This document shows positions 150-15,917 of a stretch of 64,000 nucleotides of DNA, in pieces. Each line of letters starts with the position of its first letter. The stretch's first letter is position 1. Origin of the DNA: Enterococcus phage vB_OCPT_CCS1; the sequence record ON113170.1; one strand, written 5' to 3'. Below the pieces are notes generated by a model that was not told where the DNA came from, did not search any database, and saw only the letters and a program-made list of their open reading frames with translations. A program made the position numbers and the translations under genes.

Positions 150-2321
150 CTACATATGTTTTGCTCTGTGGTCGATTTCTACTTTTCTTCCGTGTGGCAT
201 AGGTCTAGCTTGTGGATTTCCGAGATAGCCACATGTTCGTTTAACGACATCGCATGTTGCGGGGTCATTATTCCCACATTGTGGACATTCGTAGCCATCT
301 GATGTGGGGTTAAACTCTCCGTCAAAACCACATTCATGACATTTATCAATTGGAGTGTTTGTTCCTAAGTAACCAACTTTATCATAGCTGTAGTCCCAAA
401 CAGCTTCTAACGCCTTAAGGTTATGAACTAGTTTAGGATACTCTACATAGTGAATAAAACCACCAGAAGCATATTTTGGAAACTCTTTCTCAAAGTCAAT
501 CTTTTCAAAAGGTGTTGGAGCTTTACGAACATCATAGTGGAAACTATTTGTATAGTATTCTTTGTCTGTAATGTTCTCGATGATTCCATATTTTTCTGTG
601 TCCATACGACAGAATCTATCGGTTAGACTTTCACTTGGTGTTGAGTAGATAGAGAACCAGATGCCTGTCTCTTTTGTCCATTCATCCTTTTTATCATAAA
701 GCTTACGTAGAACGTCTAAAGCAAACTCTTTTGCTTCTTCATGTCTTGGGTCTGTTTTATCTTGCCAGTCACCACCATAGAACATGCTAGCAACCTCGTA
801 CAGCCCGATATAGCCCATAGAAACCGTTGCACGGTTATTTATGAACAATTGTTTTACATCGTCATCATCGGTTAAATTAGCCCCAAAAGCACCATGTTTG
901 TACAAGATAGGAGCATTCTTTGGTTGAGCTTCGTAAGTACGTTCAATTCGATAAACCAAAGCATCATGTAATACCTTAGCTCGTTCTTCAAAAATTTCCC
1001 AGAAGACTTCTTTATCCCCTTCTGATTCAATAGCAATACGTGGTAAGTTAAGGGTTACTACTCCTAAATTCATACGACCAGAGTTTACTTCGTTTCCATG
1101 TTCATCTTTCCATCCTTGTAAGAATGAACGACAACCCATAGGACATTTAAATGAACCTGTTAGCTCAACAATTTTGTCATAGTTCAAAATATCAGGGTAC
1201 ATACGTTTAGCTGAACATTCTAATGCTAACTGTTTTACTTCATAGTTAGGGTCTTCTGGTTTACGGTTAACTCCGTCTTTAATAGTGAATAATAATTTAG
1301 GGAAGATTGCTGTACGTCCTTCTGTTCCTAGACCTTGGATACGTACTTTAAAAATAGCTTTTTGGATTTCTCTTTCCCAACGACCTGTACCTAAACCAAA
1401 GCCAATAGAGGTGAAAGGAGTTTGACCATTCGATGTAAATAACGTATTGATTTCATACTCTAGGCTTTGCATTGCATCGTAAATATCTTTGTTTGTTTTC
1501 TCGATTGCATATGTTTCTGGTTCAGGAATACGGTAACGTTTAGCATCCGCCATATGTTTTTGGTAATTCATTTCAGCATAAGGGGCTAATACTTCATCAA
1601 TGCGGTCAAACGAACAACCACCATATTGACTGGAAGCCACATTCGCAATAATTTGTGCTGTTTGTGCTGTAGCTGTTTGAATGGAATGAGGTGAACCAAT
1701 TTCTGCATTACCCATTTTAAACCCGTTCTTCAACATATATTCAAAGTCAATCAAACAACAATTAGTCATTGGACGGTAAGGTTGGTAGTCTAAATCGTGA
1801 TAATGAATATCTCCACGTAAATGTGCGTTAGCTACATGAGGAGGGAGCATTTTAAGACCCTCAACTTTGTTAACTGTACCTGCTGTAAGGTCTCGTTCTG
1901 TTGCAAAGGTATTTGAGTCCTTATTTGCATTCTCATTGACAATAGTTTTGTCCTTTTCTTGTAGCTTACGTAATCTTACATTAATATCTGTATCACCTGC
2001 ACGTTCAGCATCACGTAAAGAACGAAACTCAATATAGTTTCTAGCTACGTTTTTAGCAAAAGATTTCATTAATTCCTGCTCTACAATACTTTGGAGTTTT
2101 GCAATATCGACACGTCCTGTATCGCTGTAATGCTTCACTACAAAGCGTTTAACACGTTCAGCTATAATCTCTCCTAAATCTGTTTTAGCGCCCGTAGCAT
2201 CCTTCTCAGCTCGTCCTACGGCACGTACAATCCTTCCTTCATTAAACTTGACAGTTCTTCCATCTCGTTTAACTACAAAAATCTGTTTTGTCTTAACATC
2301 TACATCTTGTGTTTCTTGCAC
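150..2321 (-). CDS. nrdD: anaerobic ribonucleoside-triphosphate reductase, class III
   Basis: 723 aa; N-terminal ATP-cone (VVKRDGRTVKFNEGRIV); C-terminal glycyl-radical motif RTCGYLG; Zn site CHECG...CPQCG; GTG start with AAAGGTGG RBS. Confidence 0.9.
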   Translation of the reverse strand: MQETQDVDVKTKQIFVVKRDGRTVKFNEGRIVRAVGRAEKDATGAKTDLGEIIAERVKRFVVKHYSDTGRVDIAKLQSIVEQELMKSFAKNVARNYIEFRSLRDAERAGDTDINVRLRKLQEKDKTIVNENANKDSNTFATERDLTAGTVNKVEGLKMLPPHVANAHLRGDIHYHDLDYQPYRPMTNCCLIDFEYMLKNGFKMGNAEIGSPHSIQTATAQTAQIIANVASSQYGGCSFDRIDEVLAPYAEMNYQKHMADAKRYRIPEPETYAIEKTNKDIYDAMQSLEYEINTLFTSNGQTPFTSIGFGLGTGRWEREIQKAIFKVRIQGLGTEGRTAIFPKLLFTIKDGVNRKPEDPNYEVKQLALECSAKRMYPDILNYDKIVELTGSFKCPMGCRSFLQGWKDEHGNEVNSGRMNLGVVTLNLPRIAIESEGDKEVFWEIFEERAKVLHDALVYRIERTYEAQPKNAPILYKHGAFGANLTDDDDVKQLFINNRATVSMGYIGLYEVASMFYGGDWQDKTDPRHEEAKEFALDVLRKLYDKKDEWTKETGIWFSIYSTPSESLTDRFCRMDTEKYGIIENITDKEYYTNSFHYDVRKAPTPFEKIDFEKEFPKYASGGFIHYVEYPKLVHNLKALEAVWDYSYDKVGYLGTNTPIDKCHECGFDGEFNPTSDGYECPQCGNNDPATCDVVKRTCGYLGNPQARPMPHGRKVEIDHRAKHM

Positions 2322-4012: not shown

Positions 4013-4243
4013 TCAGTTTTTGTCATCAGGTTCTAATAGCTTGTCCGCAGGCATATCAAAAATCCGAGCTAATTTAGCTTGATTATTTGCTCTGGGTTTT
4101 TTGATTCCATGCTCCCAATAGGATACAGTTGACCAGTGTACACCTAGTTTTTTAGCTACAGAACGCAAGGATTCATGCTTTTCTTCACGAACACGTTTCA
4201 GCACCAAGGGTTTTGGCTTGCTTTCCACGATTCTCCCCTCCAT
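4013..4243 (-). CDS. HTH XRE-family (Cro/CI-type) transcriptional regulator
   Basis: 76 aa; helix-turn-helix LRSVAKKLGVHWSTVSYWEHG. Confidence 0.7.
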   Translation of the reverse strand: MEGRIVESKPKPLVLKRVREEKHESLRSVAKKLGVHWSTVSYWEHGIKKPRANNQAKLARIFDMPADKLLEPDDKN

Positions 4244-4286: not shown

Positions 4287-5822
4287 TTATTTAAGTGCTT
4301 CTTTTACAAAGTCGTATTCTGGTTTATTTAACACAGACAACATCATTTCTTCTGGGGAAGTAACTTCTCCACCTAGTACTTGCGATAAAATATTTGTGGA
4401 GAATCCAGAAACTAACGCAACATTATCTTCGTTAAACCGTACTGGTAGATTATCATGACGAGATTGTACATTCCAGAAAATAATAGCAGGTAACTCGTAG
4501 CCATGATTTGCAAACTCCTGTTTTGCTTGCTCAAAGTTTGTTCTTTGTCCTCGTTCACAAGCAGTATTAAATTCCATATCACTGATAATAATAATCTTGG
4601 ATGGTAGTTCTTCTTGCGGTGTGTTATGCTTAACCGCAGTATCAAGAATCAATCGGAACACTGCTTGAATATTAGTAGAATAGCCAACTCTTGCACGGTT
4701 ATATACTCTCATACGGTCATACACAGTATCCTGTGGATTCAAATATACTAAACTAGGTTCTGATGCAAATGTAATGAAGTGATTAGCGAAAGTACCGTTT
4801 AATTTTTCAGCCGTGTATAATGCCAAACCTTGCGCAACATCCCAAGGGTAAACCCCGTTCGTTTCTGTCCAAGTCATTGAACTAGAAGAATCAGCAACTA
4901 CAATTGCGTTATCTTCCACATCCTTAATAACATCATCTAAAGACTGCCAAGTAGCTTCTAAAGAACGATTTACACCCTGACCTGCACGTGCTTTACGGTA
5001 TGCTCCTGTAATCTCGTGAGGTAATACCAAACTTGCATTAAGCTTTCCTTCACCCGACTCCACCTTTTCCATAAGCGCTTCATATTCATCTGGCATGTGT
5101 AATTGCAAAGCTTTACGGTATTTGAATAATGCTTTAGAGGATACTTGGTTCAAATCAATCTTATGGTATTCCTTGCTTGCTAACCGAACTTCAATTACAT
5201 TTAAGTAATCACGTAATTTAGCAATCATTTTACGATAACGAGTTAGACCTGCTTTGCCTTCAAAACCTAAATAGTTAGCAATACGAGCACCTTGATTACG
5301 TTTCTTACTATTTGGAGAACTTACATTAGCTAACCATTTACCTAGTAATGAAACAGGTTTACCCTCTGACATATTTTTAATATCTGATGTTAGTTGGTTC
5401 CCGATGATACGTGCACCTTCTGTATCCACAAAGTGGATACTACGTTTGTGTGCGTATTCCATAGTTTCAAATAAGTCTGTCCAACGACCAACATATGCCA
5501 TGTACTCCATTAAAGTAACGATTACTTGCTTGTTTTGGTTACGACCATCCACTAAGTATTTGATTGCTTCTAGGTAAGCGGAACGTTCACCCAATCCACC
5601 TAAACGGATATTACGTAAGTGTACCAAATTGCGTAATGCTAACTCTGGGTTTTCAGCATAAGCTTTAGAAAACATGTTTCGTACATCTTCTAAACGACCA
5701 CGCATAGCCCCTGCTTGTGCAAAGAAGTCTAAGTTAGCGTTTAAAGTTGATGTGTAAGTTTTAGCTCCATTTTCTGTATGTCCAACAGTTGTTTCTTCTT
5801 TTAGGTTGTCTAAAAATGACAT
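4287..5822 (-). CDS. Ro60/TROVE-like protein with C-terminal von Willebrand factor A domain (Rsr-like; DUF2828-type vWA protein is the alternative)
   Basis: 511 aa; N-terminal TENGAKTY resembles the Ro60 SEGGTYY region; C-terminal vWA MIDAS DSSSSM...T...IIIISDME; sits immediately downstream of tRNA-mimic (Y RNA-like) ncRNAs. Confidence 0.6.
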   Translation of the reverse strand: MSFLDNLKEETTVGHTENGAKTYTSTLNANLDFFAQAGAMRGRLEDVRNMFSKAYAENPELALRNLVHLRNIRLGGLGERSAYLEAIKYLVDGRNQNKQVIVTLMEYMAYVGRWTDLFETMEYAHKRSIHFVDTEGARIIGNQLTSDIKNMSEGKPVSLLGKWLANVSSPNSKKRNQGARIANYLGFEGKAGLTRYRKMIAKLRDYLNVIEVRLASKEYHKIDLNQVSSKALFKYRKALQLHMPDEYEALMEKVESGEGKLNASLVLPHEITGAYRKARAGQGVNRSLEATWQSLDDVIKDVEDNAIVVADSSSSMTWTETNGVYPWDVAQGLALYTAEKLNGTFANHFITFASEPSLVYLNPQDTVYDRMRVYNRARVGYSTNIQAVFRLILDTAVKHNTPQEELPSKIIIISDMEFNTACERGQRTNFEQAKQEFANHGYELPAIIFWNVQSRHDNLPVRFNEDNVALVSGFSTNILSQVLGGEVTSPEEMMLSVLNKPEYDFVKEALK

Positions 5823-5863
5823 CTGACATCTCTCCTTTGTATGATAGTATTTTATCTAACACC

Positions 5864-5892
5864 ACTATAACATGTAATATTATGTAAGTCAA
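5864..5892 (-). promoter_or_regulatory. promoter TTGACT-17-TATAGT for the Ro60-like gene
   Basis: Motif and spacing. Confidence 0.5.
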
Positions 5893-5989
5893 CGCCTTTT
5901 ATAAATAAAAAACCCATCCATTTAAGAATGAGTTTTTTCATCTTAACCAGTAGTTAAGCGGGGGGGGCGCAACACCTTTTATTTAACTT

Positions 5990-6130
5990 GTCATTATAAT
6001 ATCAAGAACCACAGGCTTAATAATTAGATTTGAAAGGTTTAGTCTATTAGTAGTTGATTGCTGTAGGGTTCTTTATGCTCTGGCAACCTAGTAGGTTAGA
6101 GCTATGGCAAATTGCCAAAACCTTTTTATT
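5990..6130 (-). repeat. third, degenerate copy of the Y-unit 5' module (R1) lacking a tRNA-like domain
   Basis: R1, R2 (6236-6312) and R3 (6418-6500) align as ATAAAA(A/C)GGTTTT-variable palindrome-ATAG-GTTCC/GCTCT...GGAAC/AGAGC-ATAAAGAAC..ACAGC; the outer stem shows two compensatory base-pair changes. Confidence 0.5.
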
Positions 6131-6312
6131 ATGTACAAGAATCTATTTTATACGTTGCTCTAACCAAACTGAGCTACGGGAGGATGATTCCTCCCGGCAG
6201 GACTCGAACCTGCGACCCACGGCTCCATAGGCAATAAAAATCGCTGTTAGATTCTTTATGTTCCGGCACCCATTAAGGATGGAACTATAGCTATGCTAAA
6301 ACCGTTTTATTT
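6131..6312 (-). ncRNA. Y RNA-like ncRNA unit A: permuted tRNA-like domain clamped by a 15-bp helix with a 7-nt bulge
   Basis: Minus strand reads AAGAAUCU[AACAGCG]AUUUUUAU...GCAGGTTCGAGTCCTGC-CGGGAGG-ATCA-TCCTCCCG-TA-GCTCAGTTTGGTTAGAGC-AACG-UAUAAAAUAGAUUCUU. The acceptor strands are perfectly complementary across a 4-nt loop. The 3'-half lying before the 5'-half rules out a normal or intron-containing tRNA. Confidence 0.55.
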
Positions 6313-6500
6313 ATGTAACAAGAACGCATTAACTTTAAGCTTTACCAATTAAGCTATACCACCAATGGTGGCAGTTGGATTCGAACCAACAACTCACATT
6401 TTTCAGATGTATTAGTTTTAAAAATTTGCTGTGGCGTTCTTTATGTTCCGGCTACCTGTTAGGTTGGAACTATGACATATGTCAAAACCTTTTTATCTTG
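6313..6500 (-). ncRNA. Y RNA-like ncRNA unit B: conserved 5' stem-loop module plus a circularly permuted tRNA-like domain (anticodon-like hairpin, T-arm, closed acceptor hairpin, D-arm), closed by a bulged long stem
   Basis: Minus strand reads TACATCTGAAAAATGTG-AGTTG-GTTGGTTCGAATCCAAC-TGCCACC-ATT-GGTGGTA-TA-GCTTAATTGGTAAAGC. The 3' strand GCGTTCTT pairs with AAGAACGC located 5' of the domain. TTGACA-17-TATTAT promoter at 6506-6534. Confidence 0.55.
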
Positions 6501-6505
6501 TCTTT

Positions 6506-6534
6506 ATAATAGCATAAGCTATTTAAACTGTCAA
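6506..6534 (-). promoter_or_regulatory. promoter TTGACA-17-TATTAT driving the Y RNA-like cluster
   Basis: Motif and spacing. Confidence 0.5.
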
Positions 6535-6813: not shown

Positions 6814-6895
6814 TGGGGAGTGATGGAGTTGCACCACCCGAGCTTTCGCAACTGATTTACAGTCAGCCCCGCTACTACTTACGGTATAACTCCCC
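6814..6895 (-). tRNA. tRNA-Tyr(GTA), class II
   Basis: Acceptor GGGGAGT/ACTCCCC; anticodon arm GCTGA-CTGTAAA-TCAGT; long variable arm; atypical T-loop TGCAACT. Confidence 0.5.
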
Positions 6896-9539: not shown

Positions 9540-9640
9540 AAAGGCAGTCTATGGAGTAGACGGGACTCGAACCCGTGTCCTAACGTAGAACCATACAAAA
9601 TTCTACGGGCGTAGTTACTAGTTTTAATCTACGTTAAGGT
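9540..9640 (-). ncRNA. tRNA-like/Y-like structured element: canonical T-arm (ACGGGTTCGAGTCCCGT) followed by a closed hairpin GACTGC-CTTTGTCAA-GCAGTC, preceded by a 7-bp hairpin CGTAGAA...TTCTACG; no matching 5' acceptor strand
   Basis: Hand folding; the 3' acceptor CTACTCC has no GGAGTAG partner anywhere upstream. Confidence 0.35.
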
Positions 9641-10132
9641 TACAACTAATAACTGAAATTACCTTAACTGAGTGGTAAAGCCTCTCCTGAGTTATCCACT
9701 TTTACCTCAGCGTTGTCGGTTGATGAGTCCTCTAGGTAGAACCGACCCTAGTCTAGAGGGGTAAGTGTGTAGCTAGTCTAAAACTAGGCTACAGCTAATA
9801 ATTCTTCGTTTTTAGCAGTTATATTTACTGCGATGATTAAGTCATCACTCTGCCCGCTATTCATATACTCCTTACGCCAGTCGAAACCAAAACTACCCCA
9901 ACATAAGAATTTCTTTTGACTAACCCTACCCTTCCGGCAGGGTCTAATCAAAAGTATACAATTAAAAAAATGAAAATGAGTTACGGAAAATGTAACGTCT
10001 CCACCACCGGACTATAAGGGTAAGTTGTTCCGGTCTTTAACCTAAGTACTTTACTTAAATCTAACAGGACAGCCTTCATTACGTAAACTACTTAACCATG
10101 TAAAACGTAAAGGTCAATTTCCGTTGACCTAA

Positions 10133-14899: not shown

Positions 14900-15917
14900 T
14901 GATTTAATCTGTAAAAAACACATCGCATAAACGAGATGCAGTTATAGCTCTATCAAGCAACCTACACCGATTCCGTCGATTACTACCGACATCGCCTTGC
15001 TCGTGTACTTTGAGCGCCCATTTCCAACCCTCGGTTGCTAATGTTTCTCTCCTAACCTACACCTGAGAGTGGCACACGTCTGTGCTAGTATTTTATGCCT
15101 ATTAACTGATTCGCAGGCACACTGCTTAATTCAGCCAACCAATCGGCATCCGATAAGATTGATTGTTTCCGTAGGTTCTTTAAGTCACTGGAGTGGTACT
15201 GCCCCACTCACGCCTATTAAAGTGTTAACTTAATAGATAAAAACTACTCATAACAGGTTTACTACCATAGCATTCTCTACTTCCGCCACAGTGACATGTT
15301 TAAAAACTCAAAACTTAATAGATTAAGGGCTTTTCTTCCTGCTTCATATACACTCACTGCATTCGGTCACATACTCAGAGAGGCTGAACCATCGGGAGCT
15401 ACCCGATAGCTTCTCTCTGCCTTTAATGTATGGTCTAGCACGGTGGCTAACAACGTTCACCTAAACATTCAGCTATTAAAAGTATTAATTAACATATATC
15501 CTTATGTCTTCTATAATATTTTCATCAAAAGCTGACTTAGGCTACTTGTACCAAGGTCTCTTGTTAAACCTGTATTTCTACAGTTCTCGTCAAAGGGAGT
15601 CTTTTGAGTTTTCCAAGGTCTGCCAAGCTTCTCACACTTCCACCTAACTTGGATTCTTTTCCACAGGAACGTCTATTGTATCCCCCAAGAGTCTTGTACC
15701 TTACAATCCATGTATACTCCACATAACGCTTAACTGATATTAGCTTTTACTAATAGTTACTCCTATGTTACCATAAGACCTACCTGCAACCCAAAGCACT
15801 ATCGCACCTTCGGTTACATTCAGATTCACGCCACGCTATCCTAGCAAGCTGTTCAAACTTTCTGCACTAGGTTCAAAATCTATTAAGTTTTCAATTTTTA
15901 ACCACTAACTTGTGGTG
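14900..15917 (-). ncRNA. candidate large structured ncRNA (about 1 kb ORF-free, GC-balanced, hairpin-rich); GOLLD/ROOL-like is the suggested class from context only
   Basis: No ORF of 60 aa or more on either strand across roughly 1 kb inside the tRNA array; local stems such as GAGTGG-tactgcc-CCACTC and nested CAGAGAG..ATCGGG-AGCTA-CCCGAT..CTCTCTG; dedicated promoter at 15925-15953. Confidence 0.35.

Follow-up and report, generated by a model that had tools for sequence, protein, structure and literature searches.

Ro60 and its small RNA partners, the Y RNAs, form ribonucleoprotein (RNP) particles that are conserved from bacteria to humans. In the canonical particle the Y RNA lies on the outer surface of the Ro60 ring, and single-stranded RNA ends are held in its central hole. 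The bacterial Ro60 proteins, termed Rsr, of Salmonella, Mycobacterium smegmatis and Deinococcus radiodurans likewise combine a ring with a vWA domain, and are encoded beside same-strand small RNAs, YrlA and YrlB (Chen et al. 2014, PMC4201824). Within a stem formed by its 5' and 3' ends, YrlA carries a tRNA-like domain in permuted order (T-arm, then a closed acceptor stem, then the D-arm), while YrlB is a second, shorter RNA type that lacks this domain; in Salmonella the genes form an rsr-yrlBA-rtcBA operon. Among phages, the TROVE-type protein phiRo60 of Thermus phage phiLo has been shown to bind two Yrl RNAs (Yrl1 and Yrl2) and the host polynucleotide phosphorylase (PNPase) (PMC12135203). Here we describe a locus of Enterococcus phage vB_OCPT_CCS1 (record ON113170.1), at positions 4287-6534 of a 64,000-nucleotide (nt) stretch that we refer to as the window, in which a gene for a 511-residue protein lies downstream of three small RNA units on the same strand. 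We consider this locus to be probably a phage-encoded Ro60/Y-RNA-type RNP module of a divergent lineage. The features that carry this conclusion are as follows.

4287-5822, minus strand: open reading frame (ORF) for a 511-residue, Ro60-like protein, with a predicted N-terminal helical-repeat ring domain (DUF2828) and a C-terminal vWA domain containing a MIDAS, the metal ion-dependent adhesion site (DUF7788)
6316-6500, minus strand: RNA unit 1, YrlA-like (leader 6447-6500; closing helix 5' strand 6434-6441; ACAGCAA 6426-6432; V hairpin 6396-6410; T-arm 6374-6390; acceptor-like hairpin 6357-6373; D-arm 6339-6354; closing helix 3' strand 6320-6327, then G), from the Rfam YrlA model, our own model R1, the minimum free energy (MFE) fold and covariation
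6133-6312, minus strand: RNA unit 2, YrlA-like (leader 6262-6312; closing helix 5' strand 6248-6256; ACAGCGA 6241-6247; T-arm 6197-6213; acceptor-like hairpin 6177-6196; D-arm 6157-6174; closing helix 3' strand 6137-6145, then G), from the Rfam YrlA model, model R1, a fold z-score of -3.5 and covariation
about 6000-6130, minus strand: RNA unit 3, YrlB-like, without a tRNA-like domain (two-hairpin leader 6076-6130; closing helix 5' strand AAGAACC 6067-6073; ACAGCAA 6058-6064; A/U-rich insert of 47 nt; closing helix 3' strand GGTTCTT 6004-6010, then G), from the helix plus motif, leader covariation and a counterpart in a second locus, L001

An initial annotation, made by reading the sequence, had called the protein a Ro60/TROVE-vWA protein with a complete MIDAS. 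The ORF begins MSFLDNLKEETTVGHTENGAKTY as quoted there, and the MIDAS parts DSSSSM, T383 and SDME are all present; the motif (DxSxS...T...D) is intact, with D311, S313, S315, T383 and D415 invariant across 37 homologues, as are seven basic residues of the helical domain. An AlphaFold2 model built from these homologues is confident (predicted local distance difference test 90.3, predicted template modelling score 0.89) and shows the fold of Ro60, a ring of alpha-helical (HEAT-like) repeats closed by the C-terminal vWA domain. When this model was compared with the PDB using Foldseek, the 12 top matches were all Ro60, Rsr or TROVE chains, aligned over approximately the whole protein; generic vWA domains came next, and the full-length Ro60 match scores well above these vWA-only matches. 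Sequence profiles place the protein elsewhere. Unlike bacterial Rsr, it matches neither TROVE nor vWA_Ro60 in Pfam but DUF7788 (154.7 bits, cut-off 27.1; 2.8e-45) and DUF2828 (95.1 bits, cut-off 29; 5.5e-27), with VWA_2 below threshold, whereas a TROVE-type phage Ro used as a control, gp220 of mycobacteriophage ET08, matches both TROVE (4.7e-49) and vWA_Ro60 (2e-54) in the same test. PHROGs assigns residues 1-505 to phrog_850, 'RNA-binding protein' (5.8e-139), and the protein has more than 4,700 homologous clusters at 90% identity. Because Foldseek returns Ro60 chains while profiles return DUF7788 and DUF2828, we conclude that the protein has, in its predicted model, the architecture of Ro60, yet belongs to the DUF2828/DUF7788 family and not to TROVE; the Ro60 part of the earlier assignment thus stood as a statement about fold and failed as one about family.

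The initial annotation had recognised two RNA units upstream of the gene. The array in fact holds three, the third having a leader, helix and ACAGCAA but no tRNA-like domain. Every unit has a 5'/3' closing helix whose 5' strand leads, on its inner side, into a single-stranded ACAGC(A/G)A; helix and motif together we term the handle. The long clamping helices described for units 1 and 2 (AAGAACGC/GCGTTCTT or AAGAATCTA/TAGATTCTT) are of 8-9 bp, and ACAGCAA or ACAGCGA comes immediately inward of their 5' strand. They enclose the permuted tRNA-like cores that had been claimed: in unit 1, a T-arm (GTTGG-TTCGAAT-CCAAC), a 7-bp acceptor-like stem (TGCCACC/GGTGGTA) closed by ATT and a D-arm with GG, and in unit 2, a T-arm (GCAGG-TTCGAGT-CCTGC), the stem CGGGAGG/CCTCCCG and again a D-arm with GG. 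An acceptor loop of 3-4 nt had been proposed for both; this is true of unit 1, but the loop of unit 2 has 6 nt, or 4 nt if an eighth pair forms. The MFE fold of unit 1 reproduces its leader hairpins, closing helix, V hairpin, T-arm, acceptor-like stem and D-arm. Of 41 ACAGC(A/G/T)A sites scored over both strands of the window, only those of the three units are flanked by a helix of 7 bp or more with a G after it.

Units 1 and 2 thus have the arrangement of YrlA, with T-arm, loop-closed acceptor-like stem and D-arm all inside a 5'/3' helix, and unit 3 resembles YrlB in being a shorter type without the tRNA-like domain. All three lie 180-680 nt upstream of the protein gene on the same strand, and so within the 4 kb in which a YrlA is looked for. 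An E-value scan of 1.3 kb with Rfam YrlA (RF02553) gave 47.1 bits (E 4.4e-9) for unit 2 and 34.3 bits (E 2.3e-5) for unit 1, with alignments spanning the full model (1-114); our own covariance model R1 scores unit 1 at 112.6 bits and unit 2 at 92.3 bits. The YrlA-type architecture first proposed is therefore borne out in all its arms by significant, full-length matches, though these fall below the gathering score and the units carry ACAGC(A/G)A where YrlA has GNCGAA(N)G. Both halves of the annotation, protein and RNAs, withstood our tests.

Overlooked at first reading was a conserved two-hairpin leader at the 5' end of each unit, laid out as AAAAxGGUUUU, hairpin 1, AUAG, a two-tier hairpin 2 and AUAAAG. 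Among 11 paralogous or orthologous units from the window and the loci L001 and L002, 11 of the 14 leader pairs show compensatory changes. The leader may be a processing site or a second contact for the protein.

We examined the association of such RNAs with the protein family in 80 viral stretches encoding DUF2828 homologues and in an independent set of 80 bacterial ones (loci are numbered with the prefix L). The viral loci have 349 copies of ACAGC(A/G)A on the gene strand and 46 on the opposite one. In the bacterial loci the counts are 318 and 76, and 180 copies lie within 750 nt upstream of the gene. For 47% of 303 sites, the 9 nt on the 5' side of the motif find a perfect Watson-Crick partner of at least 7 bp downstream, compared with 5% when partners are swapped between units. 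This Watson-Crick test on the variable arm was adopted because an earlier version, based on the conserved AAAG arm and admitting G-U pairs, failed to separate real from swapped partners. A unit stands beside the DUF2828 gene in 69 of 82 phage loci, and the helix with ACAGCAA is found in phages as different as FelixO1, Listeria phage LMTA-94 and mycobacteriophage Rumpelstiltskin.

The consensus of 423 units is 5'-A-AAGGC.C-nn-ACAGCAA-(insert)-G.GCCUU-G-3', with an insert of 11-243 nt (median 54). Its inner helix pairs use all four Watson-Crick types. Units of one genome have a common outer helix and flanks but differ in their inner pairs, and the outer helix is specific to the genome: AAAGAA/UUCUUG in the window, AGACC/GGUCUGG in FelixO1 and GUGGAC/GUCCAG in Rumpelstiltskin. 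A shared outer helix with varied inner pairs is the appearance that would be expected of a protein-recognition site. Strict conservation is confined to ACAGC, since the fifth YrlA-like unit of a related phage (L002:2682-2817) has ACAGCUA and further units have ACAGCAG or ACAGCAT; therefore, our counts of units by pattern are slightly too low.

For the permuted tRNA-like units, MAFFT misplaced the inner closing helix and some D-stems, and the structure was set by hand before units were realigned to the model. Over 14 such units, drawn from diverse loci, pairing reaches 90.3% of cells, whereas controls with slid partners give 39-52%. Double changes are seen at 19 of the 23 pairs, and none of 500 shuffles reaches the observed values. 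A covariance model built from these units matched 118 times in the viral loci and 26 times in the bacterial ones (163 loci in total), without exception on the gene strand. On realigning 33 units to the model, 19 of them outside the seed, 96.9% of cells are paired (38-45% when slid) and 21 of 23 pairs are compensatory, figures that lean towards the structure because the alignment was fitted to it.

These data bear on the simplest alternative, that a generic vWA/MIDAS protein without RNA binding happens to lie next to decayed or rearranged genes of the phage tRNA cluster. The profile matches of the protein are indeed limited to DUFs and a weak vWA, and a degenerate tRNA-Tyr-like sequence does lie nearby (6816-6893). 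We nonetheless strongly disfavour such incidental co-location and think it very improbable: the full-length Ro60 fold match stands well above vWA-only matches, every helix is upheld by compensatory changes, unit 3 and most units elsewhere keep the helix and ACAGCAA without any tRNA-like sequence, and the association persists in bacterial loci that have no tRNA arrays.

What the handle encloses varies widely. A handle without any domain, as in unit 3, is the commonest state across the loci; other units carry a T-arm alone or the permuted tRNA body. Further units hold a tRNA body of normal topology in which the handle, capped by a small loop, stands in for the anticodon arm. At a few loci (L134:2693, L136:2651, L010:2692) a D-arm, anticodon-like arm and T-arm follow in normal order and the handle replaces the acceptor stem. 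The tRNA-like part is thus joined to the handle in at least three topologies, which sets the relatives of the phage units apart from YrlA. Those in which the anticodon arm is replaced include 112-126-nt genes that match Rfam tRNA end to end without an ARAGORN call (L003:2575-2927, L008:4586-4887, L014:2061-2714 and about 30 more loci); their acceptor, D- and T-arms are normal, a CCA is encoded in some, and the capped helix with ACAGCAA is found at the place of the anticodon arm. We rejected the idea that these are intron-containing tRNAs, as removal of the insert leaves no anticodon loop and the module also occurs without any tRNA. Among 33 permuted units, 5 encode N-CCA directly after the acceptor 3' strand, where about 0.5 would be expected, which fits the finding that YrlA of M. 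smegmatis, with its 7-bp acceptor stem, is cleaved by RNase P and receives CCA (PMC4201824).

Three further features of the locus, the last two of them also missed initially, concern its probable transcription signals.

6506-6534, minus strand: promoter-like site of the RNA array, TTGACA-17-TATTAT, TG-extended (11/12 matches; a consensus match only)
5907-5938, minus strand: terminator-like hairpin and U-run closing the RNA array (a 13-bp hairpin in the MFE fold, then UUUUUU)
5864-5892, minus strand: promoter-like site of the protein gene, TTGACT-17-TATAGT, TG-extended (10/12 matches; a consensus match only)

The first of these is the site that the initial annotation had taken as the promoter of the array. 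The hairpin was not flagged by a terminator scanner, whose rule demands at least 3 G-C pairs. A long cluster on the minus strand, with 24 tRNA genes, a transfer-messenger RNA (tmRNA) and a ROOL RNA, has the gene and its array at its downstream end. Such a setting, in which the array is the final element of a co-oriented tRNA/tmRNA cluster, would suit a different explanation for the units, namely that they act in cis, as operators or leaders of the DUF2828 mRNA or as processing punctuation of the adjoining tRNA operon; that the motif in bacterial loci crowds, on the gene strand, into the 750 nt just upstream of the gene also speaks for it. However, in the window the terminator-like hairpin and the separate promoter-like site part array and gene, and units that follow the gene or are interspersed with tRNAs are seen in FelixO1, Rumpelstiltskin and many metagenomic phages. 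Leaders, moreover, do not typically come as arrays of 3-7 units with complete tRNA-like domains and the architecture of YrlA. We therefore regard a role in cis as distinctly unlikely.

Comparison with other phage proteins that have been likened to Ro shows that two families are involved. TROVE-type Ro, represented by gp220 of mycobacteriophage ET08/Bxz1, is found in 358 phage records, mostly of actinophages. The DUF2828 type is found in 706 of 50,697, across a broad range of hosts: Escherichia and Salmonella Felixounaviruses, Listeria P100-like phages, cluster L mycobacteriophages, and phages of Vibrio, Staphylococcus, Campylobacter, Bacillus and Enterococcus; the family also occurs in many gut Clostridia. 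The two families share the annotators' 'Ro-like' label. ET08 gp220 matches TROVE and vWA_Ro60, and aligns with the DUF2828 profile at the MIDAS stretch only. Their RNAs differ too. The YrlA of ET08 has a GCCGAG-type 5' strand and no ACAGCAA, our own model matches its tRNA-like part only, and no helix with ACAGCAA lies beside it.

The DUF2828 type includes the SEA-PHAGES 'Ro-like RNA binding proteins' of cluster L (Rumpelstiltskin gp54, LeBron gp53; PMC13148394), which carry DUF2828 and DUF7788 and are 31-34% identical to the window protein over 98% of the length. Their label is no more than an annotation; overexpression of LeBron gp53 is moderately toxic, and that paper mentions no RNA partner (PMC13148394). 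In Rumpelstiltskin, three ACAGCAA units, among them a YrlA-like one, follow just downstream of the gene. In the literature, 'DUF2828' led to plants and a tardigrade only, 'Ro-like' to annotation mentions only, and we found no paper describing RNA partners of DUF2828-type proteins. The Ro likeness of this family is already present in database labels and one preprint, while its RNA partners were not found described.

The preprint in question, on PhageMaP, reports that gp130 of the Felixounavirus Bas63 is structurally Ro60-like, lies directly upstream of tRNA genes and counters the Ppl defence, its loss sensitising the phage to Ppl; its authors guess that some of the neighbouring 'tRNAs' may be Y RNAs, and identify no RNA partner (PMC11482910). 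At the position of gp130, FelixO1 carries ORF86, a DUF2828 plus DUF7788 protein about 30% identical to the window protein, and this synteny suggests that gp130 belongs to the DUF2828 family. We know of no Ppl-type phenotype for Enterococcus phages. In comparison with Bas63, the candidate RNA partners here are defined and distinct from annotated tRNAs; in FelixO1 the units sit between the tRNAs.

These observations raise the possibility that the particle serves chiefly in anti-defence, as a decoy or inhibitor in which the tRNA-like RNAs, or the protein alone, tie up or block an immune effector of the host (a Ppl-type or tRNA-targeting nuclease), rather than in RNA repair or decay. That gp130, just before the tRNA array, counters Ppl and rescues T7 (PMC11482910) favours this, as do the presence in Felixounaviruses of a DUF2828 homologue at the same position with ACAGCAA units among the tRNAs, and the far greater frequency of the family in phages than that of canonical Ro (706 against 358 records). 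Against it, the assignment of gp130 to the family rests on synteny, not sequence; the tRNA-like domains have no anticodon arm and therefore cannot mimic the substrates of anticodon nucleases; and homologues in bacterial contigs adjoin RtcB, RlaP and RNA ligases, a repair context. On balance, we judge a mainly anti-defence role unlikely.

The repair context emerges from a sample of 114 distinct ORFs of at least 200 residues that follow DUF2828 genes downstream, on the same strand and within 1.6 kb. The most frequent family in this sample is RtcB (24), followed by RlaP (5), RNA ligase (3), Metallophos (3) and Thg1 (2). The RtcB ligase genes lie just downstream of the DUF2828 gene at L110:4504-5724, L083:5840-7051 and 22 more loci, the distance in Listeria phage LMTA-94 being 1.3 kb, and parallel the Salmonella rsr-yrlBA-rtcBA operon. 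Since genes for RtcB, RlaP, RNA ligase and Thg1-like proteins recur, we take the neighbourhood of the family to be one of RNA repair. The module of the window may serve in RNA surveillance, in repair or as a decoy; we favour repair because the neighbourhoods of its relatives are rich in RtcB.

Our preferred reading is thus of an RNP module that shares with Ro60/Y-RNA systems its protein architecture, its RNA logic (a handle with a tRNA-like or plain effector) and its company of repair genes, and that differs from them in protein sequence family, RNA recognition motif and the modular topologies of its cargo. By this reading, the three RNAs would be made from their own promoter. The handle of each, a 7-9-bp helix (outer pairs A-U, A-U and G-C, flanked by A and G) with single-stranded ACAGC(A/G)A, would be the binding site of the protein, by analogy with Y RNAs and their Ro60-binding stem and 5'-strand motif. 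The variable part inside the handle would be the effector, a tRNA elbow in units 1 and 2 (as in YrlA) and an A/U-rich loop in unit 3 (as in YrlB). Processing of the RNase P/Z type may cut the acceptor loop and leave a tRNA mimic in two pieces with a CCA end, and the tRNA-like part would link the ring to enzymes of tRNA handling, repair or decay, such as an RtcB-type ligase or exoribonucleases. During infection, RNAs that are damaged or misfolded, probably tRNAs, would then be captured by the particle, or it would dampen a host defence acting through RNA.

Several results weigh against an RNP module of the Ro60/Y-RNA type. The protein matches neither Pfam TROVE (PF05731) nor vWA_Ro60 (PF25045) at E<=1; searches of PDB chains with the protein and with the family profile gave nothing relevant, the sole match being spectrin (E 0.05); and hhalign of the DUF2828 family against ET08 gp220 aligned the MIDAS stretch alone, with a probability of 21%. 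No sequence-level link between the DUF2828-type protein and TROVE was thus found by Pfam, PDB searches or hhalign. For the RNAs, units 1 and 2 lie under the YrlA gathering score of 69 bits, and a scan of the region at Rfam gathering thresholds reported neither a Y RNA nor YrlA; the YrlA region of ET08, a phage whose YrlA has been published, is likewise below that score, at 37.4 bits. On reading the 5' strands of the units, we found no GNCGAA(N0-1)G, the proposed Rsr contact (PMC4201824). A recognisable unit is absent from 13 of the 82 phage loci, RtcB is not encoded anywhere in the window, and our literature search found no RNA-seq paper for this phage or for Enterococcus phages. Finally, Bas63 gp130 protected T7 when expressed alone, so the protein may act without RNAs of its own (PMC11482910).

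If the reading is nevertheless correct, DUF2828 represents a second Ro-fold family, unrecognisable as such by sequence, with its own Y-like RNAs and a different motif: a large branch, of which we found no description, that brings the known phage Ro-type systems to about three times their number. It would supply hundreds of natural combinations of handle and cargo for dissecting recognition, and it is tied to RtcB repair genes and, through Bas63 gp130 (a member by synteny), to a tractable anti-defence phenotype. Much more tentatively, DUF2828 proteins and their helix-plus-ACAGCAA RNAs might constitute a distinct class of RNP, commoner in phages than canonical Ro60, in which one protein-binding handle presents interchangeable cargo (none, a T-arm, or a permuted, normal-topology or acceptor-replaced tRNA body), and in which phages and gut bacteria employ protein-held tRNA mimics, cut by RNase P/Z and given CCA, to steer RtcB-type repair or to overcome RNA-directed or Ppl-type immunity.

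Enterococcus phage phiSHEF16 shares 99% identity with the window, and other Schiekvirus (Herelleviridae) phages share 97-98%. In the record of a phage 97.7% identical to the window, the stretch holding the array carries no annotation, and our results flag these 700 nt in therapeutic-candidate Enterococcus phages such as phage 113.

The surrounding cluster offered some further observations. The ROOL RNA at 15309-15895 (minus strand) is full length and lies inside the phage tRNA cluster (267.8 bits, gathering score 99.1). In the LMTA-94 locus, a sub-threshold ROOL-like match (84.4 bits, L083:1458-2009) lies about 1 kb upstream of the DUF2828 gene; ROOL, tRNAs and the Ro-like module thus keep company in two Herelleviridae lineages. 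The tmRNA, within the tRNA array at 9549-9899 (minus strand; 142.7 bits), encodes the tag peptide AKNEELLAVA*. The tRNA-Tyr-like sequence at 6816-6893 (minus strand) has the anticodon loop CUGUAAA, a long variable arm and a non-canonical T-loop; it scores 27.7 bits against an Rfam tRNA gathering score of 29 and receives no ARAGORN call, is labelled tRNA-Tyr in phage 113, and may be an unusual tRNA that still functions, or one in decay.

Directly 3' of the Ro-like gene lies a small XRE-family helix-turn-helix gene (4013-4243, minus strand), which could be a dedicated regulator; the same order of DUF2828 and XRE genes is seen in LMTA-94 (L083:4613-4855). Beyond it, at 150-2321 (minus strand), is a gene for the anaerobic ribonucleotide reductase NrdD, with ATP-cone, NRDD and glycyl-radical domains (8.8e-186). 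Its start at 2321 is about 2 kb downstream of the end of the Ro-like gene at 4287, and four small ORFs, one of them ParB-like, lie between the two.

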